Shown: piece after piece, positions 10,879 through 63,165 of the stretch | How the letters are laid out: each line of letters starts with the position of its first letter | How positions within the stretch are numbered: the first letter of the stretch is position 1 | Assembly: GCA_949288955.1 (NCBI GenBank) | Contig: CASEMS010000016.1 | Span: 4,379-68,378 of the forward strand | DNA: 64,000 nt | DNA from: an uncultured Lentisphaeraceae bacterium | Lineage (GTDB): Bacteria > Verrucomicrobiota > Kiritimatiellia > RFP12 > DVOR01 | Direction of reading: 5' to 3' | The notes under the pieces: model-generated | What the model saw: only the letters and a program-made list of their open reading frames with translations | Database searches by the model: none | Told to the model about the DNA's origin: nothing | Translations under genes and position numbers: made by a program

Positions 10879-10952
10879 TGGAGGCGCGAATCGGAGTCGA
10901 ACCGGTCTAAAAGGATTTGCAGTCCTCTGCCTAGCCGCTTGGCTATCGCGCC
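10879..10952 (-). tRNA. tRNA-Cys: tRNA-Cys (anticodon GCA), CCA encoded
   Basis: Reverse complement is GGCGCGATAGCCAAGCGGCTAGGCAGAGGACTGCAAATCCTTTTAGACCGGTTCGACTCCGATTCGCGCCTCCA. 7-bp acceptor stem GGCGCGA/TCGCGCC, anticodon loop CTGCAAA, T-loop TTCGACT. One C-A mismatch in the T stem. Confidence 0.88.
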
Positions 10953-10996: not shown

Positions 10997-11028
10997 ACGT
11001 TTTTTTGGCCGCGGGCTGTGTGGGATGG

Positions 11029-11545
11029 GCTCAGCCGCCGATCCACCCCGACTCAGCCGCCGATCCACCCTGGCTCAGCCGCCGATCCACTTCGGGTCAG
11101 CCGCCGATCCTCCTTGGGGCAACCGCAAAGACGCAAGGTTGCGCGGGAGGCTTGCGGGCATGATGGGGAGGCTTGGAAGTTTGGAGGCTTGGAGGCTTGG
11201 GGGGCTTTGACCGCAAAGACGCAAGGGGGCGCGGGAGGCTTGCGGGCTCCGCCGGTCGCTCTGCGGGCTTTGCCCGCTGACCGCTCCCTACCGCCCTCGC
11301 CTCCCGCGCTGCCCAAATGAGTCCCCCGCCATGTTTCGTGGTCTCCCCGCGTCGTCCTGCGCGGGCCACGCCCGCGCCCCCCTTTGTGCCCTTTGTGCCC
11401 GTTGTGATTTCTTCCCCGTTGTGCTTCGTGCTTCTCCGTGCCCCCCTTCGTGCCCTTGGTGATCTCCCCCCTGGCAGTCCTGTCGGCGGTAGCCGACCCC
11501 CAATCCGCCCCAATCCGCGCAATCTGCGGTTCCCCTTTGTCGGCC
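11029..11545. repeat. composite intergenic repeat locus R2 (inverted copy of R1)
   Basis: 22-bp array with units starting at 11029, 11051, 11073 and 11095 (ctcagccgccgatccac...). A 38-bp module accgcaaagacgcaagg..gcgcgggaggcttgcgggc is duplicated at 11121..11158 and 11209..11246, flanking a ggaggcttgg microsatellite. Hairpin gcgcgggccacgcccgcgc at 11358..11376. The remainder is the reverse complement of R1. Confidence 0.85.
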
Positions 11546-14996: not shown

Positions 14997-15039
14997 CGCG
15001 GCGAGGGCGGCCACGCGGCACCACGGGGAACGCCGGAGG

Positions 15040-15235
15040 GGGGAGGGCCTGAAGGACCTGAAGGACGGGAAGGACCTGAAGGACTGCCTCGCTGGCGTGG
15101 CCGCCACCCCACCGAGACTCGGCGGCCGATCCATCGAGACTCCGCGGCTACCTCTCTGAGAGTCAGCCGCCGATCCACCTCGGGTCGGCCGCCAAGTCTC
15201 CTCGGGTCGGCGGCTTCGCGGGCGGAGGGCGGGTT
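15040..15235. repeat. composite intergenic repeat locus R3
   Basis: Four 9-bp units (ctgaaggac) at 15049..15084. Shared block gcctcgctggcgtggccgccacccca, also present in R4. 22-bp-phased units gagactcggcggccgatccatc / gagactccgcggctacctctct / gagagtcagccgccgatccacc ... at about 15112..15215. Confidence 0.85.
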
Positions 15236-15268: not shown

Positions 15269-15298
15269 TTGCGCAAGGTGTCGGGGGAGTGCTATATT
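15269..15298 (+). promoter_or_regulatory. sigma70-type promoter with extended -10
   Basis: TTGCGC (15269..15274), 18-nt spacer ending in TGc, TATATT (15293..15298). The same gggTTGCGC -35 context is seen at 48759. Confidence 0.5.
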
Positions 15299-15304
15299 AC
15301 CCTT

Positions 15305-15660
15305 ATCTTGCGAGACGCCAGGGGCTGTGTCTGAGCCTTGGCGCGTGACGCGAGCCGGCCGCAGGGGCCCCTTCCCCCCGCGCGGCGCCCATGACCGGAA
15401 GGGAAACGGAGCACGCGATGGCAAGAGCGACCCTTTGGGCTCACGCGCTCCCCGCTCCCAAAGCGGGGGGGGGTACGTCTTGCTAGTTGCCTCCCGCTAA
15501 GTTTCGTCCCAACCGGGCGCGCCGCGCCTGACCGCCCCGCCGTCTCGGCGCGGTCCGGCCTGCTTTCCCATCCTTTTCAGCCGTCGGGGTGTTCCCGTCG
15601 GCCCCGCCGTGTTTTCCCCGAACGCGTTGGGCACTTCCACAGGGGAATAGGAAAACGATC
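15305..15660 (+). other. about 350-nt GC-rich leader or candidate structured RNA upstream of the lipoprotein operon
   Basis: No credible ORF lies between the predicted promoter and the ATG at 15661. Contains local hairpins (cgcgtgacgcg; ccccgc-tcccaaa-gcgggg followed by a G run) and possible long-range pairing gcgcgtga...tcacgcgc. I could not match it to any known RNA family. Confidence 0.25.
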
Positions 15661-16656
15661 ATGAAGACTGGCATGAAGATTGGCGTGTTGGCGGTGGCCG
15701 GGTGCGCGTTGCTGGCCGGGTGCGTGAGCGCCCCCGAGATGTCCGAGGAGGATAAGCGCTATGCGGGGCCTTGGGTCGAGACCGCGGAGGCCTATGCCTT
15801 GGCGAACGACGATGAGCTGCGCAAGCCGAGCAAGATCGGGATCGAGGAGATGGATATGCTCTTCGACCAGATTTCCGGCGTGGCCGTGGAGTCGCTGAAC
15901 AGCGCGCTCAACACCATCTCGACGTGTGAGGCGGAGAAGTCGTGGGCCTCTTATCTGATGTGGGCCACGGATGAGCAGGGGGTGAAGGTCGTCGCGCTCG
16001 CCCAGAAGCCCGGGGAGAAGCAGGCCGAGGCGAAGGCCGAGTGTGTGACGCAGGCGAAGTTCTCCACGTTCACGACCGCGATGATGCAGGCCACGCAGGA
16101 TGTCCAGAAGGACATGGCGATCGTGGTGCAGTTCCAGAAGGACAAGGATCGGGAGGACTTGGGCGCGGATCCCGTGGCGCGCACGGCCAAGTTGGTGGCG
16201 GAGAATTACCCCGAGAGCCAGGCGGTGCTCTTTGAGACGCTCGCCAAGACGCAGACCTTCACCCCGGAAGGGAAGGCGCAGTACTACAAGGACGCGTTCC
16301 AGGTGAAGCCGATGAGCAAGGCCGAGCGGGAGAATTACCTGCTGGTGCTGGCCAAGCGCATCACCCGCCTGGTCGAGCTGCAGCAGCAGTTCGCCGCCGT
16401 GCAGCAGAAGAACAGCGACAAGCTGAGCAAGATCGCGGAGGCCGCCGCGAAGGCCGCCATGCTCGCGAAGTTCGGCAAGGCGGTCTCCGACGAGGGGATT
16501 CAGGCCCAGGAGGCGATGGCGTCGCTCAAGCGCATCGGGTTGCAGCTGGAGGCGTCGCTCAAGCTGAGCCGTTTTGAGGAGCAGGCGTTGAAGGAGTTGG
16601 ATGCGCAGAAGGCCGAGAGCGCCGCGAACGAGGCCGGAGCGACGGCCGCCAACTAA
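15661..16656 (+). CDS. hypothetical helical lipoprotein (operon gene A)
   Basis: MKTGMKIGVLAVAGCALLAGCVSAPE has a lipobox LLAGC. The rest is Ala/Lys/Gln/Glu-rich and predicted helical. I recognise no family. Confidence 0.75.
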   Translation: MKTGMKIGVLAVAGCALLAGCVSAPEMSEEDKRYAGPWVETAEAYALANDDELRKPSKIGIEEMDMLFDQISGVAVESLNSALNTISTCEAEKSWASYLMWATDEQGVKVVALAQKPGEKQAEAKAECVTQAKFSTFTTAMMQATQDVQKDMAIVVQFQKDKDREDLGADPVARTAKLVAENYPESQAVLFETLAKTQTFTPEGKAQYYKDAFQVKPMSKAERENYLLVLAKRITRLVELQQQFAAVQQKNSDKLSKIAEAAAKAAMLAKFGKAVSDEGIQAQEAMASLKRIGLQLEASLKLSRFEEQALKELDAQKAESAANEAGATAAN

Positions 16657-16668
16657 GGGGGACGAGGC

Positions 16669-17745
16669 ATGAATATCCCTGGCATTCTTTGCGTTGGCCT
16701 GCTTGTCGCGTTGGTCGCCGGTTGCGCGGATACCTCCGTGACAACCCGCCACACGGTGGCGCCCCGCCTGCCCGTGAAGGCGCAGGAGAGCCCGAATCGC
16801 GTGATCGCGTCGCGCAGGATGGTCGAAGACCGCCCGTTCAGAATGCCGGGGAACTTCTCCGGTTCCTCGTGGAAGCACATGGTCATCGGCGTCAATCCTC
16901 GCGCGAACGTCTATGCTTCCTCGTCGTCGTATTTCTCCGAGGAGGACGTGCGCTTCATGGGCGCGCGCATCCAGTCGGAGCTCGCGAAGATCAAGCGTTT
17001 CACCATCCAGGACGTCGAGGATGCGGACTATTCGGCGCTCCGCGACGCCCAGGAGGATGGGGACATCCGCATCGCCGACCGGGTCGACCAGCCGGAGATC
17101 ACGCACTTCGCGCAGTGGAACATCAAGCTGTCGACGATCTCCGAGCGCACCGGCACCTACTCGAAGGAGATCCGCGTGGTCTGCGATCTGGCGTTCAAGC
17201 TGACGGAGGCCGCCACGGGGAACATCGTGGAGGACGCGTCGCTGCCGCCTTTTGACATCTGCGAGGAGCAGCGGCTGGACAACATGGGGCGCGTCGTCTC
17301 CGGGATCAACTGGCGCGATTCGAGCGCGTTGCGTGGGATCGTGCAGCAGTTGGCCTCGCAGGGGGCTATCCGCATCGCCAACATCCTCGCCAACGAGAAC
17401 CCGTGCGGCGGCAAAATCGTCGCGTGTCTCAGCGCGAAGGCGATGGTGATGGAGAACGGCACGCGCCAGGGCATCTCCGATGGGATGCAGATGCTCGTCT
17501 ATGCGACGGTCGAGGGCGTCCCCGTGCCAATCGCCTATGCCGACGCCCAGCCCGGTCCGGACCGGACGAAGCTGGATCTGTGGAAGTTCAACGAGGACGA
17601 TCCTTTCGCGCAGACGGTGATCGCGGCGCTCAAGGCGAACCCGAGGGGCTTCAGGGAGCACGGGCTGAACGCCGTCTCCGTGGGCGAGGCGGCCAACCCG
17701 CTGTGGCGGAACAACGTCTTGGGTGTCTTCCCCGAGGACGATTGA
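16669..17745 (+). CDS. hypothetical lipoprotein with CsgG/LpoB-like module plus C-terminal PCGG...VYATV domain (gene B)
   Basis: MNIPGILCVGLLVALVAGCADTS has a lipobox. The segment HMVIGVNPRANVYASSSSYFSEEDVRFMGARIQSELAKIKRFTIQDVEDADYSALRDAQ resembles CsgG/LpoB-type lipoproteins. The C-terminal domain NPCGGKIVACLSAKAMVMENGTRQGISDGMQMLVYATVEG is shared with gene C. Confidence 0.7.
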   Translation: MNIPGILCVGLLVALVAGCADTSVTTRHTVAPRLPVKAQESPNRVIASRRMVEDRPFRMPGNFSGSSWKHMVIGVNPRANVYASSSSYFSEEDVRFMGARIQSELAKIKRFTIQDVEDADYSALRDAQEDGDIRIADRVDQPEITHFAQWNIKLSTISERTGTYSKEIRVVCDLAFKLTEAATGNIVEDASLPPFDICEEQRLDNMGRVVSGINWRDSSALRGIVQQLASQGAIRIANILANENPCGGKIVACLSAKAMVMENGTRQGISDGMQMLVYATVEGVPVPIAYADAQPGPDRTKLDLWKFNEDDPFAQTVIAALKANPRGFREHGLNAVSVGEAANPLWRNNVLGVFPEDD

Positions 17746-17756
17746 GGGAGGGTGCG

Positions 17757-19397
17757 ATGAAAGGGTACGGCGCGTGGATGTGCGGGGCGGCGTTGGCCGC
17801 GTTGTGCGTGGGGGGCGTCTCGATGGCGGATAGGGCGGCGGCCCTCAAGCGGCTTGGCGTGTTGGTCACGGAGTGTTTGGCCGGAATCCAGGGGCGCGTG
17901 GCGCCGTGCGGCGGCACAATCCCGGCCTGCTCGGACGTGGATGAGATGGCCATGGAGGGCGGCTCACGCCTGAGAATCGATGGCGGCATGCCGATGCGCG
18001 TCTACGCGACGGTGGTCGGCGAGGCGTTGCCACGGGCCTTCGACGAGGAGGCACAGGCGTTGCGCCTCTTGAACGGCGACCTGGAATCCGCCCGCGGGCA
18101 CGATGCGGAGGTCGGGGAATGGGTCATGGTGAAGGGGAGCGTGCCGCTTGTCGGCCTCACGGAGGCGCAGGCCAGGGCCAAGGCGCAACTGGAGGCGCGC
18201 AAGGCTCTGGCGGCGTTCGTCTCCAATCAGCTCTCGGCCGAGGAGGTCTCCCAGTCCAAGGAGCGCACGGTGACGACTGGGGAGGGGACGCGTTACGAGG
18301 GTGTCTCTTTCTTGGCGCACTATTCCAAGAGCGAGATCGAGTCCCTGTTGCGGGGGGCGCGCATTGTGCTGACCAAGGAAAAGGCGGGGGCGTGCGTCGC
18401 CATCGCGTTGCTTTCCGAACGCGCCAAGGACGCGGCTGGCGCGTTGGGCGCGGCGAAGGCCGGCGAGGCGCCCGGCACGGTCCGGGCCGTCGGGGTCGGC
18501 CCGACGGAGGAGGCCGCCATCGCTGCGGCCTGCCGCAGCGCGGTGGCTCAGGTGAACGGCACGGCCATCACCGCGGCCGATGCCGCCACGGACGATGCCA
18601 TCCGCTCCAGAACGTATGCCACCACGCAGGGTCTGGTTTCGGAGTATCGCCTCTTGTCCAAGGAGGCGGAGGAGGGGCAGGTGCGCGTCGCCATCGCGGC
18701 CAAGGTCGTCTCCGGCGACCAATTGGTGGACGACTTGGGTGGGAAGCTGAAGGCGATGGGGGATCCCATCTTCTGGGTGGACTCCCAGGATCGGGACGCA
18801 CGTGCCCAGCTCTCCGATTTCCTCATCGGCAAATCGCTTCGGACCAGCCTCGACCGCGAGACCTCCGACTACCGGGTGGAGGTCGTCCCCGAGTATGAGG
18901 CCTTCACGCACTCCCGGACCGGGCGTGCGGGGACGCGCCTGCATCTGACGGTGGCGTGCTACGACCCTGCGGGCGTCCAGCTCTTCGTCTTGCAGAACGA
19001 TGCTGGGCGGGCGACGAGCACGGCGCGTTCGGAGGTCTATCGGCGGCGTGAGACCCTGCGGTTGGCGCTCAAGGAGATCGCCACCCCGCTCCACCAACGC
19101 TTGCAGCAGGCCGTCAGCGACATCGCCAACAATGGGCGCACCGTGCGTCTGGCGGTCACCAACGTGAAGACCCGCGAGCAGATGCGTCTGGTGGAGTCGC
19201 TCACGGATGTCATCAACGACCTGCCCGGCGCCTCTTCGGCCTCCTTCTCGTGGGGCACGGTGGCCGAGAGCACCGCCATCATCCGCCTGACGCTCCAAGG
19301 GAACCCCCAGGATTTCCTCTCGCTCCTGCGCAAGCAGGTTCCGGCCTGCCCAACGGCCGTCGAGGTCTCCCCCAACCTGATCATCCTTACCTTCTGA
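17757..19397 (+). CDS. hypothetical exported multidomain protein with LPP20/FlgT-like segments (gene C)
   Basis: Signal MKGYGAWMCGAALAALCVGGVSMA, with Shine-Dalgarno GAGGGAGGG upstream. The N-terminal domain APCGGTIPACSDVDEMAMEGGSRLRIDGGMPMRVYATVVGE is paralogous to the gene B C-terminus. Segments LTEAQARAKAQLEARKALAAFVSNQL and VGVGPTEEAAIAAACRSAVAQVNG resemble LPP20/FlgT-type folds. Confidence 0.7.
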   Translation: MKGYGAWMCGAALAALCVGGVSMADRAAALKRLGVLVTECLAGIQGRVAPCGGTIPACSDVDEMAMEGGSRLRIDGGMPMRVYATVVGEALPRAFDEEAQALRLLNGDLESARGHDAEVGEWVMVKGSVPLVGLTEAQARAKAQLEARKALAAFVSNQLSAEEVSQSKERTVTTGEGTRYEGVSFLAHYSKSEIESLLRGARIVLTKEKAGACVAIALLSERAKDAAGALGAAKAGEAPGTVRAVGVGPTEEAAIAAACRSAVAQVNGTAITAADAATDDAIRSRTYATTQGLVSEYRLLSKEAEEGQVRVAIAAKVVSGDQLVDDLGGKLKAMGDPIFWVDSQDRDARAQLSDFLIGKSLRTSLDRETSDYRVEVVPEYEAFTHSRTGRAGTRLHLTVACYDPAGVQLFVLQNDAGRATSTARSEVYRRRETLRLALKEIATPLHQRLQQAVSDIANNGRTVRLAVTNVKTREQMRLVESLTDVINDLPGASSASFSWGTVAESTAIIRLTLQGNPQDFLSLLRKQVPACPTAVEVSPNLIILTF

Positions 19398-19415
19398 ACG
19401 CAAAGGAGAAACACC

Positions 19416-20792
19416 ATGAAGCACACACTTCTCGCGGCCGCGATGGCCTTGTCCGCAGGCGCGCTGCTCGCCCAGGCCGAGCCGGGCGGGCAGGATTGGC
19501 CCCTCACGCCGATCACGGCCGCCGTCGCCGATTCGGAGACGGACGCGCAGACGGACATCGAGGCCTTCCTCAAGGACAAAGACAAGAATGGCTTTGGCGC
19601 CGCTATCAATGCCGGCGTGAACAAGAAAGACGACGGCTCGGTCTTTGTGGTCTCCACGGGCATCGGCATCGTGGCCGCGCCGATCACGCACCCCTCCTTC
19701 GGCGCCTCGCGCGCACGGGCCTTCGACCGCGCGATGCTTGACGCGAAGGCCGAAATGGCCCGCACGGTCGCGGTCGCGTTGGAGACTGGCGCACAGATCC
19801 GATCCCGGCAGTATGGGGAATCCGACCCGGCCGCGGATCCCAACGTCGCGTTGGCCGAGGCGATGGCCAAGATGCCGCCCGACACCTTGGGAGGCAAGAT
19901 GATGCTCTTGCTCAACAAGAAGTTGGACAACCTGCTCAAGGAGGAAGGGTACGACATCGACGCCGCCCGCGCGGAAGGCAATGCGGCGCAGGCCGCCGCG
20001 GCGGCGAAGAAGGTGATTGGCGAGGAAGAGTTCTCCGTCGCGCGTCGGGCCGCGGCCAATGCCATCATCGGCGGGCTTCAGGCCTATTACACCGTGGAGT
20101 GTGTCCTCCCGGAGCGCGTCGAAATCGGCGTCGTGGCCATCTGGAGCCCCAAAATGGCGGAATTGGCCGATGCGATGGTCTCCGGGCGGCAGATTGTTAC
20201 GGAGCCCGGCAAACCGCTCGCGGAGCGGATCCCTTCCGACAAGGCCAAACTCCTGAACACCTTCGGCACCCAAGTCGTGGTGGATGAGCACGGGGAGATG
20301 GTCCTGGTCTCCTATGGGCAGAGCGCGCCGCGCTCCTCCTCCGGCATGAGCATCCGCATGGCGCGGAACAACGCGCGGCTCATGGCGGAGACGCAAATCC
20401 GCGCATTCGCCGAGGAGGAGGTCGCCTTCAATGCCGCCACCGACGAGGCGGAGAAGACGATGGATCTGGAAGGGATGGGACAGGTCTACGTCGATGAGAG
20501 CACGGCGGAGGACTTCCGAAAGACCTACGCCAAGTCCATGACGCTCTCCGGGATCACCCAGTACACCACCTGGAACGCAAAACACCCGCAGAGCGGGAAG
20601 ACCATCTATGGTTCCGTCTGCGTGTGGAGCCCCTCCCAGGCCCTTGTCGGGAAAGCGCTCCGGGATGGTTGGAAAAGCAAGGAGGGCGCCGCCGCCCAAC
20701 CGGCCACCACAAACGCCCGCCCCAATCGAGGCACCGGGGTGAGCGCCCCCCAGTTCAACCGCGGCGCGCGTGGCGATGCGAACGCTATCTAA
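19416..20792 (+). CDS. hypothetical periplasmic protein (gene D)
   Basis: Signal MKHTLLAAAMALSAGALLAQA. The segment VFVVSTGIGIVAAPITHPSFGASRARAFDRAMLDAKAEMARTVAV is an LPP20-like pattern. 457 aa. Confidence 0.7.
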   Translation: MKHTLLAAAMALSAGALLAQAEPGGQDWPLTPITAAVADSETDAQTDIEAFLKDKDKNGFGAAINAGVNKKDDGSVFVVSTGIGIVAAPITHPSFGASRARAFDRAMLDAKAEMARTVAVALETGAQIRSRQYGESDPAADPNVALAEAMAKMPPDTLGGKMMLLLNKKLDNLLKEEGYDIDAARAEGNAAQAAAAAKKVIGEEEFSVARRAAANAIIGGLQAYYTVECVLPERVEIGVVAIWSPKMAELADAMVSGRQIVTEPGKPLAERIPSDKAKLLNTFGTQVVVDEHGEMVLVSYGQSAPRSSSGMSIRMARNNARLMAETQIRAFAEEEVAFNAATDEAEKTMDLEGMGQVYVDESTAEDFRKTYAKSMTLSGITQYTTWNAKHPQSGKTIYGSVCVWSPSQALVGKALRDGWKSKEGAAAQPATTNARPNRGTGVSAPQFNRGARGDANAI

Positions 20793-21705
20793 GCTCTTGC
20801 TCCTGACGTTACTGGCCCCCGGGTGCGCCATGGCGGCGACCCCGGGGGAGATTTTCGCGCAGGCCAAGCCTGAGATCCTCGCCACCGCCTACGTCAAGAA
20901 GGGCGGTTACCGCTTTGGCGTGGCGCGGGTCAGGCCGGCGACTTTCGCGGGGATCCGTGGCAGAAGGGCCCCAACGCAGGCGTGGCTCTACGCCTCCACC
21001 GATCTCATGGCCGCCATCGCCTGCGAGGCAATCGCTTGGCCCGACGCACTCCCACCGGAAACCTGCCGCGCATTGGAGCGCATCCTGTGCGGCAGGTTTG
21101 GCCTCTCTGCCACGGTCTCCGGCCTCACCACGGTGCACAGCGCACGCGAGGGGGATTGCTGGGTCTGCGTCGTCGCCTTGCCGGAGGGCGAGGCCGCCAA
21201 GGTGCCGCGGCTGACCTTCGAGGCGGCGCGGGCGCGTCTCCTGCGGGAGGAGGTGCTGCTGGCCGAGGGCGCGCCTGTCGAGGCGCTGATCGCCCTGCGG
21301 CGCACCGCGGGGCCGATGCCGGAGGCCATTGACCGCGCCCCGTGGGAGGGATTGCTGGCGGCGGCGACGTTCGCGACGCCGCGTCTCAAGGCCCTGCCGC
21401 GGCTGGCGGGGCGTTACCCTCTGGGCTCGGCGGAGCCGCCGACGGACGGGGATTTCGCCAAGGGCAACGAGGCCTTCGGGCGCGGCGATCTGCCGACGGC
21501 CTATGCGGCCTTCCTGGCGAGCGCGGAGCGGGCCTGGGCTTTCGACGCCTTGAACATGGCCGGCAACGTGGCGCGTCGCCTGCCGGGGCATGAGGCCGAG
21601 GCCGCCGCCCCCGGGGCCCCCGGCAGGGTGCAAGGCACCCTGCACCCCCGGGCGCGTCCTGCGGACGCGCCTGAAGGAACGCCACGGGGGCGGGAAAGAA
21701 CCTGA
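20776..21705 (+). CDS. hypothetical exported protein, possible lipoprotein, TPR-like C-terminal segment (gene E)
   Basis: MRTLSKLLLLTLLAPGCAMAATPGE. It overlaps the 3' end of gene D. The last ~12 codons are encoded by repeat locus R4, so the true C-terminus is uncertain. Confidence 0.6.
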   Translation: MRTLSKLLLLTLLAPGCAMAATPGEIFAQAKPEILATAYVKKGGYRFGVARVRPATFAGIRGRRAPTQAWLYASTDLMAAIACEAIAWPDALPPETCRALERILCGRFGLSATVSGLTTVHSAREGDCWVCVVALPEGEAAKVPRLTFEAARARLLREEVLLAEGAPVEALIALRRTAGPMPEAIDRAPWEGLLAAATFATPRLKALPRLAGRYPLGSAEPPTDGDFAKGNEAFGRGDLPTAYAAFLASAERAWAFDALNMAGNVARRLPGHEAEAAAPGAPGRVQGTLHPRARPADAPEGTPRGRERT

Positions 21706-21950
21706 ATGACCTGAAGGTCGGGAAGAACCTGAAGGACAGCCTCGCTGGCGTGGCCGCCACCCCAACGAGCCTCGGCCGCCAAGTCTCCCTGCCTCAGCCG
21801 CCGATCCACCGAGACTCAGCGGCTACCTCTCCGAGACTCAGCCGCCGATCCTCCGAGAGTCAGCCGCTAAGTCTCCTCGCGTCGGCGGCTGATGCTCCGA
21901 GCGTGTGCGACCAAGCCTCCAAGCATCCAAACCTCCAAACTTCCAATTGC
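21670..21950. repeat. composite intergenic repeat locus R4
   Basis: cctgaaggaa / cctgaatgac / ctgaaggtc / cctgaaggac units. The shared block gcctcgctggcgtggccgccacccca. 22-bp-phased units at about 21766..21898 (gagactcagcggctacctctcc, gagactcagccgccgatcctcc, gagagtcagccgctaagtctcc ...). Then ccaagcctccaagcatccaaacctccaaacttcc, the reverse complement of the microsatellite in R2. Confidence 0.85.
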
Positions 21951-26411: not shown

Positions 26412-27671
26412 ATGAACCAAGACACCATCGCCGTCATCGACCTGGGCAGCGCGCGCACCACCGAGATCGCCCGCGCCATCCGCAAAGTCGGCGTCTACAC
26501 CGAGCTCCACCCGCACGACCTCACGGCCGCGCAGCTCGCCGCCATCCCCAACCTCCGCGGCCTCGTGCTCGCCAGCGGCCCCCGCCGCGCCTACGAAGGC
26601 CAGGTCGTCGAGCCCTCCCCCGCCATCCTCGAGGCCGGCCTCCCCCTGCTGGCGGTGGACGACGCGGGCGACCCCGAGCCCGACCTCGCCGCCTTCGTCT
26701 TCAAGACCGGCGCCACCCGCAACTGGGACATGGACAACTTCATCGCCGACCAGGTCGAGGCCATCCGCGCCCAGGTGGGCGACAAGAAGGTGCTCCTGGC
26801 CCTCTCCGGCGGCGTGGACAGCTCCGTCGTCGCCGCCCTCCTCATCCGCGCCATCGGCAAGCAGCTCACCTGCGTCCACGTCAACCACGGCCTCCTCCGC
26901 AAAGGCGAGCCCGAGCAGGTCATCCGCGTCTTCCGCGAGGAGCTGGGCGCCAACCTCGTCTACGTCGACGCCACCGACCGCTTCCTCGGCAAGCTCGAAG
27001 GCGTGGCCGACCCCGAGCAGAAGCGCAAGATCATCGGCGCCGAGTTCATCCGCGTCTTCGAGGAGGAGGCCCGCAAGCTCGACGGCATCGCCTTCCTCGG
27101 CCAGGGCACCATCTACCCCGACATCATCGAGAGCGGCACCAAGACCGCCAAGGCCGTCAAGAGCCACCACAACGTCGGCGGCCTCCCCCCCGACCTCCGG
27201 TTCGAGCTCGTCGAGCCCCTCAAGATGCTCTTCAAGGACGAGGTCCGCGCCTGCGGCCTGGCCCTCGGCCTCCCCGAGGCCATGGTCAACCGCCAGCCCT
27301 TCCCTGGCCCAGGCCTCGGCGTCCGCTGCCTCGGCGCCATCACGCGCGATCGCCTCGAGGCCGTCCGCGCCTCCGACGCCATCCTCCGCGAGGAGTTCGC
27401 CGCCGCCGGCCTCGCCGCCCACGTCTGGCAATACTTCACCCTCATCCCCGACGTCCGCTCAGTCGGCGTCCGCGACGGCGTCCGCGCCTTCGAGTGGCCC
27501 TGCGTCATCCGCGCCGTCAACACCGTCGACGCCATGACCGCCACCGTCGAGCGCCTCCCCTGGCCCCTCATGGAACGCCTCGCCGACCGCATCACCCACG
27601 AGGTCCCCGGCATCAACCGCGTCCTCTTCGACCTCACCCCCAAACCCGTCGGCACCATCGAGTGGGAATGA
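26412..27671 (+). CDS. guaA: GMP synthase with complete ATP-pyrophosphatase and dimerisation domains but a truncated, Cys-less GATase remnant
   Basis: P-loop KKVLLALSGGVDSSV, KSHHNVGGLP, LVEPLKMLFKDEVR and C-terminal PVGTIEWE are canonical GuaA. Only about 125 residues precede the P-loop, and no GxCxG nucleophile elbow is present. Confidence 0.9.
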   Translation: MNQDTIAVIDLGSARTTEIARAIRKVGVYTELHPHDLTAAQLAAIPNLRGLVLASGPRRAYEGQVVEPSPAILEAGLPLLAVDDAGDPEPDLAAFVFKTGATRNWDMDNFIADQVEAIRAQVGDKKVLLALSGGVDSSVVAALLIRAIGKQLTCVHVNHGLLRKGEPEQVIRVFREELGANLVYVDATDRFLGKLEGVADPEQKRKIIGAEFIRVFEEEARKLDGIAFLGQGTIYPDIIESGTKTAKAVKSHHNVGGLPPDLRFELVEPLKMLFKDEVRACGLALGLPEAMVNRQPFPGPGLGVRCLGAITRDRLEAVRASDAILREEFAAAGLAAHVWQYFTLIPDVRSVGVRDGVRAFEWPCVIRAVNTVDAMTATVERLPWPLMERLADRITHEVPGINRVLFDLTPKPVGTIEWE

Positions 27672-27678
27672 GGTGCGG
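27647..27678 (+). repeat. 32-bp direct repeat, left copy (last 25 nt of guaA including the stop codon, plus 7 nt)
   Basis: cgtcggcaccatcgagtgggaatgaggtgcgg is identical to 29443..29474. Confidence 0.95.
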
Positions 27679-27692
27679 ATTCACGCAATCAG

Positions 27693-27720
27693 TCTCCCCG
27701 CCATATCCATGGCGGGGAGA
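27693..27720 (+). other. perfect 12-bp stem hairpin at the left edge of the islet
   Basis: tctccccgccat atcc atggcggggaga. No T-run follows, so it is not a canonical intrinsic terminator. Confidence 0.6.
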
Positions 27721-27779
27721 TGTGGAAGGTTGCCTCACAGACAGTTTAAATAATCAATGTGTTTGGCGTGAACGTGGCT

Positions 27780-28496
27780 ATGCTGTTTGACAATAGGCGG
27801 TTGGAGGAAGAAATATCCCATGCGTTGCGCGTGTTTTGGATGACACGACATCGGCAAGCGCGGCATTCGGAGGATAAGGGTAATCGGGCAGCAGTGACGG
27901 GCGGTCGACAATTGGATGGGTTTGTCACGTTGATTCGCGAGTTGCTTTGCGCGAATGGCGTTCCGAAAGAGGCAATCTTCACGGATGTAGCCTTGGAATT
28001 GCCCGGTTATTATCGACCGAACAAGAAGTGGGATCTCTTGGTGGTGCGTGAGAAACGCCTATTGGCCGCGCTTGAGTTCAAAAGCCAGGTTGGGCCTTCA
28101 TTCGGCAACAACTTCAATAATCGTGCGGAAGAAGCGTTAGGAAGTGCCACGGATTTGTGGACGGCCTATCGGGAAGGCGTGTTTGGGACGAACGTGGCGC
28201 CGTGGGTCGGATATTTTATGTTGGTGGAGGACTGTAAGGCAAGTACGACTCCCGTCGCGGTGCGCTCTGCCCATTTCCCTGTGTTGGAGGAATTTCGGGA
28301 TGTCTCGTATTTGAGACGTTATGAGATCTTTTGCAAGAAGTTGATGTTGGAGCGGCAATATTCCGCGACTTGCTTAATGACGACCTCGTTTCATGCGCCA
28401 TCCTCGATCCATTATGGGTTTCCGGATGAGGCGTTGTCCTTGCAAAAGTTCCTATTTTCGTTGCTTGCTGCGACATGCATCGAGGAACAACGATGA
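27780..28496 (+). CDS. type II restriction endonuclease (PD-(D/E)xK; XhoI/PaeR7I-like by recollection)
   Basis: Overlaps the methyltransferase start (ATGA at 28493..28496). The D...ExK motif is KKWDLLVVREKRLLAALEFKSQVGPSFGNNFNNRAEEA. About 240 aa, the size class of PaeR7I/XhoI enzymes. An alternative GTG start lies at 27759. Confidence 0.65.
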   Translation: MLFDNRRLEEEISHALRVFWMTRHRQARHSEDKGNRAAVTGGRQLDGFVTLIRELLCANGVPKEAIFTDVALELPGYYRPNKKWDLLVVREKRLLAALEFKSQVGPSFGNNFNNRAEEALGSATDLWTAYREGVFGTNVAPWVGYFMLVEDCKASTTPVAVRSAHFPVLEEFRDVSYLRRYEIFCKKLMLERQYSATCLMTTSFHAPSSIHYGFPDEALSLQKFLFSLLAATCIEEQR

Positions 28497-29314
28497 CGCA
28501 TCACACGCTTTATCATGGTGATGCGAGGTCGTTGTCGTTCATCGATGACGCGAGTATCCATTTGGTGCTTACCTCTCCGCCATATTGGAACCTCAAGGCT
28601 TATGAGCGCGGAGAGCGGCAGTTGGGAATAATCGATGATTACGCCACGTTCGTCGCCGAATTGGAAAAGGTGTGGCGAGAGTGTTATCGGGTGTTGGTCC
28701 CTGGTGGGCGTGTCGTTTGTGTGGTTGGGGATGTGTGCCTGTCGCGAAAAGAGTACGGTCGCCATGCGGTTATGCCCTTGCATGCTGACATCGCCGTGAG
28801 TTGCCGAAAACTAGGTTTCGATAATCTCAACCCAATCATTTGGCATAAGATCTCGAACGCACGTTTCGAGGCGAACACGCATAGTTCTTTCTTGGGGAAG
28901 CCTTACGAACCTAATGCCATCATCAAGAATGACATCGAATTCATTCTCATGGAACGCAAACCTGGTGGTTATCGGAAGCCTTCGGTGGAGCAACGCAAGG
29001 CTAGCATGATTGGGAAAGAAGAGTTTCAGGCGTGGTTTTCCCAGTTCTGGGAACTGCCAGGTGCTTCGACAAAAAACGGCCATCCGGCTCCTTTCCCCTT
29101 GGAGTTGGCTAGCCGTTTGGTGCAAATGTTTTCTTTTTCCGGCGACACGGTGTTAGACCCGTTTTGCGGGAGTGGTACGACAATGCTGGCAGCCATGCAG
29201 AATAATCGCAATAGCATCGGGGTCGAGGCCGAACAATTGTATTGCGATGGTATCTTGAGTCGTTTGCGTGAGCCATTTTTAGGGAGTGAGGTAACGTTCA
29301 TCGATGCGCTATAG
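28493..29314 (+). CDS. beta-class N4-cytosine/N6-adenine DNA methyltransferase
   Basis: Motif IV TSPPYW near the N-terminus and motif I VLDPFCGSGTT near the C-terminus give the beta-class order. Shine-Dalgarno GAGGAA upstream. Confidence 0.9.
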   Translation: MTHHTLYHGDARSLSFIDDASIHLVLTSPPYWNLKAYERGERQLGIIDDYATFVAELEKVWRECYRVLVPGGRVVCVVGDVCLSRKEYGRHAVMPLHADIAVSCRKLGFDNLNPIIWHKISNARFEANTHSSFLGKPYEPNAIIKNDIEFILMERKPGGYRKPSVEQRKASMIGKEEFQAWFSQFWELPGASTKNGHPAPFPLELASRLVQMFSFSGDTVLDPFCGSGTTMLAAMQNNRNSIGVEAEQLYCDGILSRLREPFLGSEVTFIDAL

Positions 29315-29442
29315 AGTGGCCCTAAACACGCTATTGCTTGCGTTTGATTTCTTCTTTGAGGGTGTGGGGAGGAGAAGCGTGGCCTCAATCTCTTGCACAT
29401 AATCTGCAAGACCGCTTCTCCGCCCTACGAATATCACGTGCG

Positions 29443-29474
29443 CGTCGGCACCATCGAGTGGGAATGAGGTGCGG
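29443..29474 (+). repeat. 32-bp direct repeat, right copy (duplicated guaA 3' end)
   Basis: Identical to 27647..27678. Confidence 0.95.
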
Positions 29475-29507
29475 GGCTTCGCACGCCGTCGCCTGCGGGA
29501 GAGGGGG

Positions 29508-30718: not shown

Positions 30719-30770
30719 GGCGCGTATTGTAGCAAAGCCCCACCGATGAAAGGCGGGGTTGTCGATAACT

Positions 30771-30836
30771 TTGGATCGGCGGCTGACCCGAGGTGGATCG
30801 GCGGCTGACCCGAGGTGGATCGGCCGCCGATCCTCG
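30771..30836. repeat. repeat locus R5: three 22-bp units
   Basis: tggatcggcggctgacccgagg occurs twice identically (30771 and 30793). It is followed by tggatcggccgccgatcctcgg (30815). Confidence 0.9.
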
Positions 30837-30864
30837 GAAGGGCGGGGCGGCGCGCCATCGGGGC

Positions 30865-30895
30865 TTGACCTGGAGCGCACACCATGTGCTATCGT
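30865..30895 (+). promoter_or_regulatory. predicted promoter for the DUF362 gene
   Basis: TTGACC (30865..30870) and TGcTATCGT (30887..30895). The spacer is 16 or 19 nt depending on the -10 register. Confidence 0.35.
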
Positions 30896-38934: not shown

Positions 38935-39088
38935 GGAGACTTGGCCGCCAATCCACGGAGACTTAGCCCCCGACCCAGGGAGACTCAGCCGCCAATCCAA
39001 GGAGACTTAGCGGCTGACCCGGGGAGACTCGGCGGCTGACCCGGGGAGACTCAGCGGCTGACCCACGGAGACTTGGCGGCCGATCCTG
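38935..39088. repeat. repeat locus R6: seven 22-bp units in perfect phase
   Basis: GGAGAC starts at 38935, 38957, 38979, 39001, 39023, 39045 and 39067. Example units: ggagactcagccgccaatccaa, ggagacttagcggctgacccgg, ggagactcggcggctgacccgg, ggagactcagcggctgacccac. Confidence 0.92.
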
Positions 39089-39120
39089 GGTGGGGAGGGG
39101 CGGGGGTTCGCGGACGCACC

Positions 39121-55915: not shown

Positions 55916-56683
55916 TCACAGCCGCCAATCGTCAAGCACCCACGGGCAGGGGCGGACGGAATTGTGCAGTTTGGGGGCATGAAAGCCACGCGCCGCCACG
56001 TCCGGATCCGGGTTGCCATGAAACACCAACACCTTGGTCTTTGGCTTGTGCGGTGTGAGAAAGAGATTGAATGGGAGGGGATAGACGCACGTACGCTTGA
56101 AACTTTTCACCCAGTCCTCCGGCCACCAACACGGCAAGCGCCCGGTTGCCTGTGTCATGGCATAGGTCATGAAGGCTTGCTCCGTGCGATAACGGGCACG
56201 GTCAACCGCCTGCGGCATCTCGTCCAAAAAGCGTTGATAAACGGCATGTGCCTCCGCACTGCCGGCATTGAAGCGAAAGAGCGAGGAGTTGCCAATGTCC
56301 GGCAATTTCCGGAAGATGCGTTTGCGCCGCTCCACCCAGTTGTGGATAATGCAAAACCGCCCCGGCGCGTAATCGAAGAAACAGTCGATATCCTCCTGGA
56401 TCACGACGTCCACGTCAAAGAACAGCGTCGGTCCCCGCAAGTCGGCCAACCCCTTGCGAAAGAGACACAGCTTCACGAAGATGTCCGGCCAGCAATCGAA
56501 AACCCCCGGGTCCGGGTTCTCGGGGAACGGGCACGCCTCGATGCCCGCGTCCAGCCCCGTCGCGTCATCCGTGACGCAGACAAACCGAAACGGCCGGCGC
56601 AAATGCCGCCGCACCGAGGCATGCAGGATATTCGTGAACGCGGCGGGATAACGCGTCCCCCACTTCAGGCAAAGAATGTTCAC
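55916..56683 (-). CDS. putative glycosyltransferase (DxD type), start uncertain
   Basis: VNILCLKWGTRYPAAFTNIL...LFFDVDVVIQEDIDCFFD has a DVD motif. GTG start chosen at 56683. The track ORF extends to 56779. Confidence 0.55.
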   Translation of the reverse strand: MNILCLKWGTRYPAAFTNILHASVRRHLRRPFRFVCVTDDATGLDAGIEACPFPENPDPGVFDCWPDIFVKLCLFRKGLADLRGPTLFFDVDVVIQEDIDCFFDYAPGRFCIIHNWVERRKRIFRKLPDIGNSSLFRFNAGSAEAHAVYQRFLDEMPQAVDRARYRTEQAFMTYAMTQATGRLPCWWPEDWVKSFKRTCVYPLPFNLFLTPHKPKTKVLVFHGNPDPDVAARGFHAPKLHNSVRPCPWVLDDWRL

Positions 56684-56807
56684 CGGTTCCGACTTGGTCA
56701 ATCCTCCGAGACGAACGACAATCGAAAACGCCAAAGCCCACCCGCCCGGCACGCCCGCCCGGCAAGGGAATCGCCCCAAACAAAAAATCCTGTGCCGCCC
56801 GCCGCCA

Positions 56808-57611
56808 TCACAGCCTCCTCTTCCCGCGCGTGGCCAGCAGATACACCCCGAAACGCCCCATGTCGCGCGGGACGATCTGCCGCGGGATGCGCAACGCGTC
56901 CGCGTGCGCCTCGCGCTTGCGCGTGGTCACGGCGTAACGATAGCCCGCCGCGCGCACCAACCGCTCCTCCCGCGCCCCGAAGTCCCCGAAAGGATAGGCG
57001 AACGACACGATTGGCTCCCCCACCAGCGCCTCGAGCGTGCGCTTGTTCGCCGCAATCTCCGCCCGCGCCGTCGCCTCATCGCAATCCCGCGCCAGCCAAA
57101 CATGCCCCGCCGTGTGCCCCCCAAACTCCACCAGCCCCGACCGCGCCATCTCCCGGATCTGCCCATCCGACAAAAACCTTGGCCCGCGCCGATCCGTCAC
57201 GAAACACGTCGCCGGCACCCCCAATTCCCGCAAAATCGGGAACAGTTCCGTGAAATTGTCCGCGAACCCATCGTCAAACGTCAGCACCATTGTTCGCCTA
57301 TGGCACGGCCCATCGAACGCCTCCCGGAGCGTCCTGAACGTATACCCATCCGCCAGCAAATCCAAAATCAGCCGCCGCAACGCCGGCGGGCGGATGGAAT
57401 TGTTCGGCGCCTCCGGCTCCGCGATCCCCTCGCTCACCGAATGCAACATCAGCACCGCCGGCACGCCCGCCGGCCTACGCGGCCACCAAAACAACGCCCG
57501 CGCCGAAACCGCCGCGAACGCCGTCGCCGCCCTTGATTGGCTTGGCGTTTGTTGCGTAAGTGCCCAATGTCTGTCGCATTTGGCGTTTGGGCATGTCATG
57601 GTAGGTCTCAT
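56808..57611 (-). CDS. polysaccharide deacetylase (NodB homology domain)
   Basis: MVLTFDDGFADNFTELFPILRELGVPATCFV...FGGHTAGH...SFAYPFG. ATGA overlap with the upstream GT8 stop. Confidence 0.85.
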   Translation of the reverse strand: MRPTMTCPNAKCDRHWALTQQTPSQSRAATAFAAVSARALFWWPRRPAGVPAVLMLHSVSEGIAEPEAPNNSIRPPALRRLILDLLADGYTFRTLREAFDGPCHRRTMVLTFDDGFADNFTELFPILRELGVPATCFVTDRRGPRFLSDGQIREMARSGLVEFGGHTAGHVWLARDCDEATARAEIAANKRTLEALVGEPIVSFAYPFGDFGAREERLVRAAGYRYAVTTRKREAHADALRIPRQIVPRDMGRFGVYLLATRGKRRL

Positions 57612-58654
57612 GGTTTACTTGGAAGGTCTGTTTCCTTTTCTAAACTCAAGGCGATGCGACGATGTAAACCCAATGGGACACAAAACGAAAAGATCTTGCG
57701 GCGACGCACCAAGTTTTCGTCGTGGTGGATAAAGTCGTCAATCCATTTGCGCCAAGTCGAAAAGAGACCACTTTCGAGCAATGCGTCAAACCAAAGGTCG
57801 GCCATTGGGGAGTCCGGATATTTCCATGGCTTGATGCCGGAGGCGTAATGGATTTGGACCGGATGTGCAAACATGGCATCCCATGCAGGATTGGAGGCGC
57901 GTTCTTTTTGCGTGAGGCGGGCATACTCACGCCAATAGCCGGCAATCGCCATCATGCGCGGAGGGTAAGCCTTGAGCGCAGGGGAACAAACCAAATTGAG
58001 AACGTCCATTTCCGGGAGAATCAGACGGTGAGCATTGTCTTGAACAAACTTAAGGCACCGTTCTGCCACGTTCTCACGTCGCATTTTCGCCAGATTCAAC
58101 GTCATGAATCCGGAGCCGAGTGTCATCCGGGCACGTTCGGCGGCGGAGAAGTTTTTCGTGTAACGCCGGAGCGATTTGGGGAGGCCGGAATCGCGTAAAA
58201 TCCCTTTGCCATGCCAAACCGCGTAGGAAACATCTTCCGGGCCTGCAAAATAAATATCCTCATCGGATCTCAGACAATCGAACGCGAGTGCGACATCATC
58301 GGCGTACACCACATCCACGTCGGCGACCACCACTCGGTCGTATTGTGGAAACCAATCCGCGAGCTTCAACTTGTGATACAGATCCTTGGAAAAGTTACCC
58401 TCCACCTTGGGGAGCGCCAAGGGCGGCGCTTCCATGATGTGAAGCGAAGCATTTGGAAAAAGCCCAACCACACGCTCCAGACAGGCACAATCCGCCTTGG
58501 AAAGTCCTGTTCCCACGACATGGATGCTGTACCGGCGACTTGGGTTCGCATGTTGCAACAACGAATAGAAGCAAACCCCAGCGGGAAGGACATAATTTCG
58601 ATTGAAACAATGAATAATCGGGATTTCTCCCAGCGTCTCATTCGTTTGTTTCAT
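57608..58654 (-). CDS. glycosyltransferase family 8
   Basis: MKQTNETLGEIPIIHCFNRNYVLPAGVCFYSLLQH...DRVVVADVDVVYADDV. An alternative start lies at 58684. Low-GC island. Confidence 0.8.
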   Translation of the reverse strand: MKQTNETLGEIPIIHCFNRNYVLPAGVCFYSLLQHANPSRRYSIHVVGTGLSKADCACLERVVGLFPNASLHIMEAPPLALPKVEGNFSKDLYHKLKLADWFPQYDRVVVADVDVVYADDVALAFDCLRSDEDIYFAGPEDVSYAVWHGKGILRDSGLPKSLRRYTKNFSAAERARMTLGSGFMTLNLAKMRRENVAERCLKFVQDNAHRLILPEMDVLNLVCSPALKAYPPRMMAIAGYWREYARLTQKERASNPAWDAMFAHPVQIHYASGIKPWKYPDSPMADLWFDALLESGLFSTWRKWIDDFIHHDENLVRRRKIFSFCVPLGLHRRIALSLEKETDLPSKP

Positions 58655-58667
58655 CGCATCCACCCTT

Positions 58668-59636
58668 TCACGAAAACAAATCAAAAAAACGTAGACGAAG
58701 CGCTGCTTTTAATGGGAGACGAATGTCAATCGTTTGTTTGGCATGACGAATGGCTTCTGCGATTTGTCGCCGCTCTTCGGGGGAATAATCCGAACGACGA
58801 TGCCAACATTTGTAGATAATCCAACGGACCAATACCCACTGTAAGGCGGCTTTGGCGCTTTCCGAAAGTTCGGGGTATGTGCGCAACAACCCGTCCTTAT
58901 AGGCGTTCCACACCGCCTCAAACGATTGGCACATCAACCGTGTCCACCGAAGGGAAAGTGTAGAACTCTGACTCCCCGGCGTGATGCTAAAACGATAGAC
59001 GTAAGCGGGGATCCTCACGAGGGAATTGGCCCTCCAGAGATGCTGGGCGCAAAAAACCGCATCGTCCGTTCCGGGAATGGAGGGGTCTAACCGTTTGTCC
59101 CCCCACCATGAGCGACGATAAAGGCGATTCCACAGGTTTACGCCTCCCTGAGAGGGAAGGTAAAGCGTTGCCACATGTCTTGCGAGGTTCTCGCCCTCAA
59201 AAATCGTGAGCGGTTCCTTTTTCGTGCGCAACGAGACTTCCGGCAATGGCGCCGCGCCATCCGCCCGCTCAACCAACCCTTCCACCACGTCGGCCCCAGT
59301 TCTTTGAGCGGCTTCCAACAATGATTGAAACGCCTCAGGAAAATAGAGGTCATCCTGATCCAGGAATGCCAGCCACTCCCCTGTCGCGTTGTCTATTCCG
59401 GTGTTGCGTGCGGCCCCCATCCCCAAATTGCGTACATGCCGCAACAAACGAAACCGTCTGTCGCGTCGAACAAGCGTTTCCGCCTTGGCGATTCCCTCTC
59501 GGTTTGGCCCGGCATCATCAATCAAAAGGCACTCAAAGTCCCCCTCCGTTTGCTCGGCAAGCGAATGGCCCACGCGCTCAATCCATGGCTCGCAATTATA
59601 AAGGGGGACGATGACGGAAATCTTCGGCCTCTTCAT
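58668..59636 (-). CDS. glycosyltransferase family 2
   Basis: [45 protein letters not shown]...LAFLDQDD. ATGA overlap with the epimerase stop. Confidence 0.88.
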   Translation of the reverse strand: MKRPKISVIVPLYNCEPWIERVGHSLAEQTEGDFECLLIDDAGPNREGIAKAETLVRRDRRFRLLRHVRNLGMGAARNTGIDNATGEWLAFLDQDDLYFPEAFQSLLEAAQRTGADVVEGLVERADGAAPLPEVSLRTKKEPLTIFEGENLARHVATLYLPSQGGVNLWNRLYRRSWWGDKRLDPSIPGTDDAVFCAQHLWRANSLVRIPAYVYRFSITPGSQSSTLSLRWTRLMCQSFEAVWNAYKDGLLRTYPELSESAKAALQWVLVRWIIYKCWHRRSDYSPEERRQIAEAIRHAKQTIDIRLPLKAALRLRFFDLFS

Positions 59637-60466
59637 AAGTGTTCCTCCCTTCCCAAAATGGCACGAATCTTGGTGGCATCGCCATAGATACACGGCGAGT
59701 CATACGGACGATCCGGATAGGCGCCGACTTGAAGGTGGATGTTCAGCCTATTTTCCTGAATGAAGGCACGGGCACGATCAAGCAATCGTTGCGGATGCCC
59801 GGAACAACAGTGTATGACACCTGTCACATCGCGTTGACAAACTGTTGCGGCAATCATGTTGGCACATTCGTTTATCTCCAAGAAGTCAAACTCGCGCGTG
59901 CCGCTCACAAAGGGGAACTCATGTTTTTGTTCACGCGCCGCCTTCAGTAAATGCGTGAAGACCGAATGGTTGGCGCCATCATCGCCATAAAGATAGAACA
60001 TGCGCAACCATTGGAAAACACACTTGGGCTGCTCGCTCTCAAGCCACGTTTCAATCAAGCGTCGCAAGGTGTCTTTCGCGATGGCGTAAAGCGTTGTGGG
60101 GTGGCATGGCGTCGTTTCGGTTACCATCCCCTCATGATAACCAACTTCATGTACCGTCCCCGCGATTGCGACTTGAGAGACGCCTCCAAGAACCATGCGA
60201 CGAATGAAGTCAAAGTGGCGCGAAAGTTGCAACGCATGGGAAGGCGAATTGTGCTGAAAGTTGTCCTGCCAAGCCAAATGAAGCAAAACATCGCCCTTTG
60301 GCAACTCCGACGCCTCCAAAATATCGCCTTGGAGGATTTGTGCACCCGTCGGCACGTTGTCGACTTGCCGATCCCATGCCAACACGTCCACACCCCGGTG
60401 AAGCAATGCCTTTACGACATGCCGCCCAATGTAGCCGTTTGCCCCGGTTATGACCACGCGCATCAC
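59633..60466 (-). CDS. NAD-dependent epimerase/dehydratase family protein
   Basis: [28 protein letters not shown] has the Rossmann GxxGxxG motif. 277 aa. Confidence 0.88.
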
Positions 60467-63136: not shown

Positions 63137-63165
63137 CAATGCCTTCCAGGATGTGCTAAAAATGC

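Follow-up and report, generated by a model that had tools for sequence, protein, structure and literature searches.

A conserved five-gene operon of LPP20/FlgP/FlgT- and DUF6844-type envelope proteins in uncultured gut bacteria

We analysed a 64,000-nucleotide (nt) stretch of DNA from an uncultured Lentisphaeraceae bacterium (the window hereafter), in which five co-directional genes, here called A to E, occupy positions 15661-21705. These genes form a real and conserved module that travels as a unit and is confined to uncultured gut bacteria of the Planctomycetes-Verrucomicrobia-Chlamydiae (PVC) group. The module is an undescribed, non-flagellar set of envelope proteins of the LPP20/FlgP/FlgT and DUF6844 kinds; no description of it was found in the literature that we searched, which agrees with the original prediction of a previously undescribed system. 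As to its function, the reading that we tentatively prefer, while holding it to be somewhat doubtful, is that the operon specifies a lipoprotein-anchored periplasmic scaffold (an oligomeric ring, arc or lattice) that lies under the outer membrane and is unlinked to flagella.

The five genes all lie on the plus strand: A at 15661-16656 (331 amino acids (aa)), B at 16669-17745 (358 aa), C at 17757-19397 (546 aa), D at 19416-20792 (458 aa) and E at 20770-21705 (311 aa). The spacing is 12 nt between A and B, 11 nt between B and C and 18 nt between C and D, while D and E overlap by 23 nt if E starts at the GTG codon at 20770, or by 17 nt if it starts at the ATG codon at 20776; the coordinates, gaps and overlap are as first described. 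All five reading frames are intact, and Shine-Dalgarno-like motifs were seen ahead of B, C and D. Because the G+C content of the window is about 70%, long open reading frames (ORFs) occur on both strands. The G+C content at third codon positions (GC3) separates genuine genes from such shadows: each of the five genes has a value within 0.85-0.92, whereas in the long antisense ORFs it is the first codon positions that are rich in G+C (GC1), as is typical of shadows. The five genes are therefore real. In Pfam and NCBIfam scans, none of the five proteins reached the cut-off of any family, as expected from the earlier remark that no gene belongs to a well-known one. An anti-phage defence role was also considered and dropped, since a PADLOC scan gave just one spurious short match, to A.

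Homologues were sought on a large scale and turned out to be rare. In a collection of 5.8 billion proteins, C has 9 homologue clusters, B has 4 and D has 46, and when 1.84 billion representatives were searched exhaustively by HMMER with the B profile, only 91 clusters came up at E ≤ 1e-3. A genome scan with the D alignment located 25 loci, all of them in metagenome-assembled genomes (MAGs) from animal guts and labelled Kiritimatiellae, Lentisphaerae/Victivallales or 'Verrucomicrobia' (the taxonomy was checked for one genus). Maps built with tblastn and HMM searches showed that the order B-C-D is the same wherever the contig permits and that an E gene follows downstream; B is immediately preceded by an A-like lipoprotein gene in nearly all related loci. 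About 25 species-level gut PVC MAGs (among loci L001-L033) have the full order A-B-C-D-E, with the operon proteins being 30-60% identical across these species; the closely related loci L031-L033, in which B is 63% identical, have exactly A-B-C-D-E. The flanks vary by locus, with dcw genes in L001, a tRNA synthetase gene in L002, DEAD helicase genes in L031 and ScpA in the window. This fixed order between unrelated and varying flanks indicates that the operon is a self-contained unit. The co-occurrence that the original prediction had named as a check on the five genes was thus found, with the same order in about 25 species and different neighbours.

The module comes in several forms. In one sub-type, A is long, C has four domains and E carries tetratricopeptide repeats (TPR); in another, A is short, C has about 404 aa and E is short, ending in a DEDLML-like tail. 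Some loci (L001, L002, L009 and L022) further carry two more genes, one for a 38-aa lipoprotein and one for B2, a second paralogue of the B type. The conserved gene for the 38-aa lipoprotein (ending ...SSLPxNAEDVSxWQ) was seen at L001:8900-9016, L002:9812-9928 and L008:12576-12686 as well as in L009 and L022; it was looked for in the window and is absent from it.

Export signals and domains of the five proteins

N-terminal export signals are present on all five proteins. A lipobox was taken to be a signal peptide ending in the pattern [LVI][ASTVI][GAS]C, which is fitted by LAGC in A (residues 18-21, lipidation site Cys21) and by VAGC in B (residues 16-19, Cys19). Every one of 17 A-like and of 30 B-like sequences keeps the lipobox Cys, and no Asp follows it in A or B. 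C and D carry AxA-type signal peptides of the signal peptidase I class, which are kept in their relatives. The APGC of E fails the lipobox pattern, and its Cys is absent or non-equivalent in E relatives; judging from the sequence, E is more likely to be cleaved by signal peptidase I (at AMA/A) than to be lipidated. Accordingly, of the signal peptides and lipoboxes that had been assigned to each protein, the lipoboxes of A and B and the signal peptides of C and D stand, but the LLAPGC of E does not stand as a lipobox.

Gene C encodes an exported protein in which two more domains come after a pair of SHS2 (LPP20/FlgT_N/FlgP-like) domains. The profile of the C family matched FlgP of Campylobacter jejuni (PDB 9HMF chain C) with an E-value of 3.1e-8. 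The alignment is almost gapless over FlgP residues 81-167 (the region of helix, hairpin and strand), which would imply that C has a segment as long as the ring-forming hairpin of FlgP. The FlgP/FlgT_N-like SHS2 domain, defined by profile comparison with 9HMF_C and Pfam FlgT_N, lies at 18468-18731 on the plus strand (approximately residues 238-325 of C). At the family level, Pfam LPP20 (PF02169) matches 12 of the 27 C proteins (best E-value 6e-6) and FlgT_N (PF16548) matches nine of them; the window C alone stays below threshold, with 18 bits against 28.8 for FlgT_N (residues 252-318, E-value 0.004) and an E-value of 0.05 for LPP20. The LPP20/FlgT-like character first noticed in C is thus upheld by its family. 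Furthermore, hhalign related the first domain of C to D (95%) and, with lower values, the N-terminal domain of E to C (68%) and to D (35%). On these profile comparisons, C, D and E are paralogues, of which E is the more weakly related to the other two.

These matches also bear on a more specific possibility, namely that the module is a stand-alone periplasmic ring or disk in PVC gut bacteria, homologous to the FlgP/FlgT accessory rings of flagella, which we regard as rather unlikely. No flagellar Pfam family was found among the neighbours of the operon in the window, L001, L002, L031 or L032, and for the window this bears out the original prediction, which saw no flagellar genes there. The cultured relatives Kiritimatiella and Victivallis are not known to be motile.

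The window C differs from its relatives in one segment. Residues 25-95 (17829-18041, plus strand) are a remnant of the B2 paralogue, whose C-terminal domain is fused to C in frame in this lineage only: they are 52% identical to B2 of L001, L009 and L022 versus 38% to the B of the window, and B2 adjoins C, directly upstream of it, in these three loci. The insertion is absent from 26 other C proteins. However, it is present in the database protein P0001, which is 97% identical to C and has the same 546 aa, so that the fusion is not an assembly error. The insertion is best read as a B2-C fusion left by deletions, and it lends Rosetta-stone-type support to the idea that B-type and C proteins act together. 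Beyond the fused remnant, hhalign found no relationship between C and B.

Gene D encodes an exported protein with a full-length homologue of solved structure. The profile of the D family matched FTT_1539c of Francisella (4QVR_A) with an E-value of 7e-30, residues 23-433 aligning with 78-481. The AlphaFold2 model of D (pLDDT 79.6, pTM 0.80) has two tandem domains, each consisting of a hairpin, a long helix and a hairpin, and 4QVR was its only significant PDB match in Foldseek (E-value 8.8e-12, probability 1.00). Against Pfam DUF6844 (PF20891), the window D scores 20.2 bits with a cut-off of 27, and precomputed PF20891 matches exist for 42 of the 46 database homologues of D. Hence the LPP20/FlgT-like label that D had received is right in that D shares a domain type with C, and is given more precisely as a homologue of DUF6844/FTT_1539c. 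The C-terminus of D consists of a disordered linker and a [GA]D[ED]DAF tail, which is predicted with high confidence after that linker and is near-invariant across species at 31-49% identity; in the window, this tail is degenerate and reads GDANAI. Two tandem D (DUF6844) paralogues were seen in the Kiritimatiellae MAGs L012 (3750-6380) and L020 (3414-6021), where the first copy has no DEDAF tail.

FTT_1539c is an immunoreactive protein associated with outer-membrane vesicles (OMVs; PMC10963506, PMC13649117), and this homology brings in another explanation, in which the five products are envelope or OMV antigens or adhesins like Lpp20, HpaA and FTT_1539c that interact with the host from the surface or from vesicles and build no superstructure. 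Every carrier of the operon that was found is an animal-gut MAG, and HpaA and the LPP20 family are among the fold and family matches. We nevertheless consider this explanation unlikely: five genes in fixed order with translational coupling argue for stoichiometric co-function, the known examples are skewed to pathogens that were studied for their antigens, and none of the five proteins matches an adhesin or toxin family at Pfam/NCBIfam cut-offs.

Gene B encodes a lipoprotein in which a linker of about 60 aa (pLDDT < 50) follows the lipobox and leads to an alpha/beta domain and then to a C-terminal beta domain with a P-x-G-G motif. Its model has an overall pLDDT of 47, with values of about 70-86 in the core (residues 80-240). 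In Foldseek, this low-confidence model matched CsgG best (4UV2, E-value 3.5e-6, TM-scores 0.26/0.36), followed by an LPHT-ring chain (E-value 4.9e-5) and FlgT (E-value 1.3e-4), and also CC_3750, HpaA, LptE and GNA1162. All these proteins have one common alpha/beta lipoprotein fold, and the matches are suggestive of a CsgG/FlgT/LptE-fold domain in B. At the sequence level, Pfam gave nothing for B at E ≤ 1 and nothing but noise for 30 B family members at E ≤ 0.1, the B profile found only noise among PDB sequences, and when the 10 B relatives that stood furthest away in the exhaustive search were scanned against Pfam, no bridge to any family appeared. The CsgG/LpoB-like module assigned earlier to B receives suggestive support from the CsgG/FlgT/LptE-type fold resemblance of the pLDDT 47 model, and none from sequence.

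The CsgG matches might be taken to mean that the operon encodes a secretion system, with B as an outer-membrane channel like the curli nonamer and the other four proteins as its accessory factors, chaperones or secreted subunits. B is a lipoprotein, as is CsgG, and the tails of D and of the short E could be secretion or recognition signals. We judge such a system improbable, however. The CsgG nonamer has two transmembrane beta-hairpins per subunit, which together make a 36-strand barrel, and no insert of transmembrane-hairpin length and no amphipathic segment was noted in the B alignment or in the low-confidence model; the earlier hint that B is a CsgG-type channel is not supported. In addition to the missing sequence similarity to CsgG in Pfam and PDB profile searches and the low TM-scores, the same search finds the non-channel proteins FlgT, LptE, HpaA and GNA1162, and the operon encodes no amyloid-like repeat substrate.

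The fold class suggested for B also includes LpoB, and the architecture of B, in which a compact alpha/beta domain comes after a disordered linker, would suit a protein that, perhaps together with A, spans the periplasm to regulate a peptidoglycan synthase or an inner-membrane machine, with C, D and E as adaptors. The operon in L001 follows a fragment of the dcw cluster (mraZ, rsmH and a penicillin-binding protein gene), but this neighbourhood is not kept at the other loci, the window included. Since B has no LpoB match among Pfam or PDB sequences and LpoB does not figure in the 50 best Foldseek matches to the B model, we hold this arrangement to be even less probable than the secretion channel.

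For A, a lipoprotein without a known family, profile searches of PDB and Pfam found no relatives outside the operon. The same searches with the E profile gave nothing except TPR in E relatives, where TPR_2 matches 3 of 23 (best E-value 3.6e-6); the window E, which has an N-terminal domain and a C-terminal TPR region 73 residues shorter, matches none. Compared with two 98%-identical metagenomic contigs (L034 and L035) that have a full 384-aa E, the window lacks 219 nt (73 codons) in frame, with the junction at 21603-21610 (plus strand) in an 8-nt direct repeat, CGCCGCCC. This deletion takes out half of the TPR region of E and could be a strain variant or an assembly collapse. Thus, the TPR-like tail noticed in E corresponds to a TPR domain in the relatives, but it is cut down in the window copy. 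As a side observation, L034:1-1620 holds an ABC-F-like ATPase gene and an ORF with a non-C N-terminus and a C-type C-terminus, and this contig looks chimeric.

The lesions of the window copy, namely the 73-codon deletion in E, the degenerate D tail and the B2 remnant in C, could suggest that the five genes encode merely adjacent exported proteins with independent roles, in a module that is decaying in this strain. Given that the gene order is kept across about 25 species at 30-60% identity while the flanks vary, that all frames are intact with high GC3, and that the E deletion is in frame, we see hardly any chance for this account.

The proposed periplasmic scaffold

In the scaffold that we tentatively propose, Sec exports all five products, a step that their N-terminal signals show at the level of sequence. 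A and B would be lipidated at the invariant lipobox Cys and thereby tethered to a membrane, and since no Asp follows this Cys, that membrane should be the outer membrane under the Lol rules of Escherichia coli. B, held on its linker of about 60 residues, would supply a predicted alpha/beta domain of the CsgG/FlgT-middle/LptE fold. C, D and E, as soluble periplasmic paralogues with SHS2-type (LPP20/FlgP/FlgT_N/DUF6844) domains, may oligomerise by beta-sheet extension; the basal disk of FlgP and the H-ring of FlgT are polymers of this fold. The acidic-hydrophobic tails ([GA]D[ED]DAF on D and the DEDLML type on the short E) might dock between subunits or on the TPR of E. Such an assembly would probably serve gut PVC bacteria by supporting their outer membrane mechanically or in its organisation.

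Several points weigh against this proposal. Complex formation is inferred here. The fold of B is only suggestive, coming from a model with a pLDDT of 47, and B has no sequence link to known families. FTT_1539c, the sole relative of D with a solved structure, has no known function, and domains of the SHS2/LPP20 type are also found in proteins that are monomers or small oligomers, of which Lpp20 is an example. The GDANAI tail of the window D and the loss of half of the E TPR mean either that these features are dispensable or that the module is decaying here. Finally, the outer-membrane placement borrows its lipoprotein sorting rules from E. coli and not from PVC bacteria.

The module matters beyond this genome. 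What is known of SHS2/LPP20-type proteins comes mainly from flagellar accessories (FlgP, FlgT) and from antigens of pathogens (Lpp20, FTT_1539c), and three paralogues with two dedicated lipoproteins in a non-flagellar context would show an extra-flagellar role of these domains; the module might also shed light on the recruitment of flagellar disks. If the stand-alone ring were true, the scaffold family would have a flagellum-independent and perhaps ancestral function, and the orphan DUF6844/FTT_1539c family of Francisella would gain its first functional context. By way of comparison, the module also gives access to FTT_1539c, a Francisella protein that is abundant and immunogenic and has a solved structure but no function. 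Moreover, gut PVC bacteria are nearly all uncultured and their envelope organisation is poorly known, for which the module provides a defined target of study.

Surroundings of the operon in the window

The original prediction placed a promoter and an unusually long, structured leader ahead of the operon. A consensus scan called no sigma-70 promoter there. A candidate look-alike, read by eye, lies in an AT-rich island at 15269-15298 on the plus strand (TTGCGC, 18 nt, TGCTATATT ((TGC)TATATT)); the scan did not call it because its -35 hexamer matches at three of six positions. The leader or intergenic region at 15299-15660 (plus strand) is about 360 nt long. Its predicted folding energy is no better than that of shuffled sequences (z = -0.41) and it has no Rfam match, and a riboswitch or structured leader was rejected on these grounds. 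Hence neither the promoter nor the structured leader was borne out.

The operon does lie between two composite repeats, as had been noted. The upstream one (15039-15215) consists of GAAGGAC-type units followed by units with a 22-nt period, and the downstream one (21692-21890) overlaps the final codons of E. Arrays with the 22-nt period were found at six sites in the window, namely the two operon flanks (15039-15218 and 21692-21915) and positions 1075-1215, 11012-11152, 30754-30872 and 38944-39103. It follows that the flanking repeats say nothing specific about the operon, and the special role given to them is not supported. A reading of these repeats as mobile-element boundaries was likewise rejected, as the same arrays occur at all six sites and related loci are flanked differently. 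The array units are GC-rich and partly palindromic, of the GCCGCCGATCC...TCAGCCGCC type, the sites are apparently intergenic, and a GAAGGAC-type prefix is common to two array copies. These arrays look like a family of intergenic repeats of this genome that resembles repetitive extragenic palindromic (REP) elements.

Upstream of the operon, the window encodes a GH3 glycosidase, a zinc-ribbon protein and ScpA, and downstream a proline-rich protein, a PA14/discoidin protein and GuaA; these neighbouring genes are unrelated to the operon. A low-GC stretch of about 1.8 kb (27647-29493, 0.58 versus about 0.70) contains an N6/N4 DNA methylase gene (ORF 28475-29314) and is bracketed by 51-nt direct repeats (27647-27697 and 29443-29493) that include the final codons of guaA (GMP synthase). 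This stretch has the look of a small island that went in at the guaA 3' end. Over its final 8 kb (56001-64000), the window has a G+C content of 0.52-0.61 versus about 0.70 elsewhere, and this part may be foreign or mobile DNA. The only Rfam match of the window at the gathering level is a tRNA gene at 10882-10952 (minus strand), which lies beside a repeat array.

Comparison with known envelope and flagellar proteins

The curli channel CsgG (4UV2/4UV3) is a lipoprotein like B and provides the best structural matches of the B model. It differs from B in that there is no sequence-profile similarity and the hairpins are not evident, and the operon has no CsgE-, CsgF- or CsgA-like partners. FlgT of Vibrio (H-ring, 3W1E; LPHT ring, 8Z5N) touches two proteins of the module: FlgT_N matches nine of the 27 C proteins, and the B model matches both FlgT and the LPHT chain. 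The SHS2 N-domain and the CsgG/TolB-N-like middle domain of FlgT would here be spread over the separate proteins C and B, while the middle and C-terminal domains of FlgT have no Pfam match here and the context is non-flagellar.

The Lpp20 family of Helicobacter pylori corresponds to the LPP20 Pfam family matched by 12 of the 27 C proteins. The operon of H. pylori Lpp20 (HP1456) is likewise non-flagellar and encodes several envelope proteins with the LPP20/SHS2 fold, but the Lpp20 proteins are small, and a DUF6844 protein, a B-type lipoprotein and a TPR protein are all missing from their operon. PflA and PflB of the Campylobacter periplasmic scaffold are TPR proteins, as is E in the relatives. 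FlgP of the C. jejuni basal disk, which is chain C in the periplasmic scaffold model 9HMF, is matched by the C profile; it is a 171-aa lipoprotein, whereas C is a soluble multidomain protein of 440-550 aa. FlgP forms concentric rings, and within its family the capacity to form rings goes together with a hairpin inserted after the SHS2 helix and before the second strand (PMC12222027). FlgQ is described as a repeat of two FlgP units (PMC12222027), and D is likewise a tandem of two domains, although the homology of D is to DUF6844 and not to FlgQ.

The closest counterpart of D is FTT_1539c of Francisella tularensis (PDB 4QVR), its homologue over the full length, and both are exported envelope proteins. 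FTT_1539c belongs to a predicted four-gene operon, FTT1537c-1540c, which, like that of D, contains several genes for hypothetical proteins (PMC4696196). The [GA]D[ED]DAF tail is seen in D of the PVC family.

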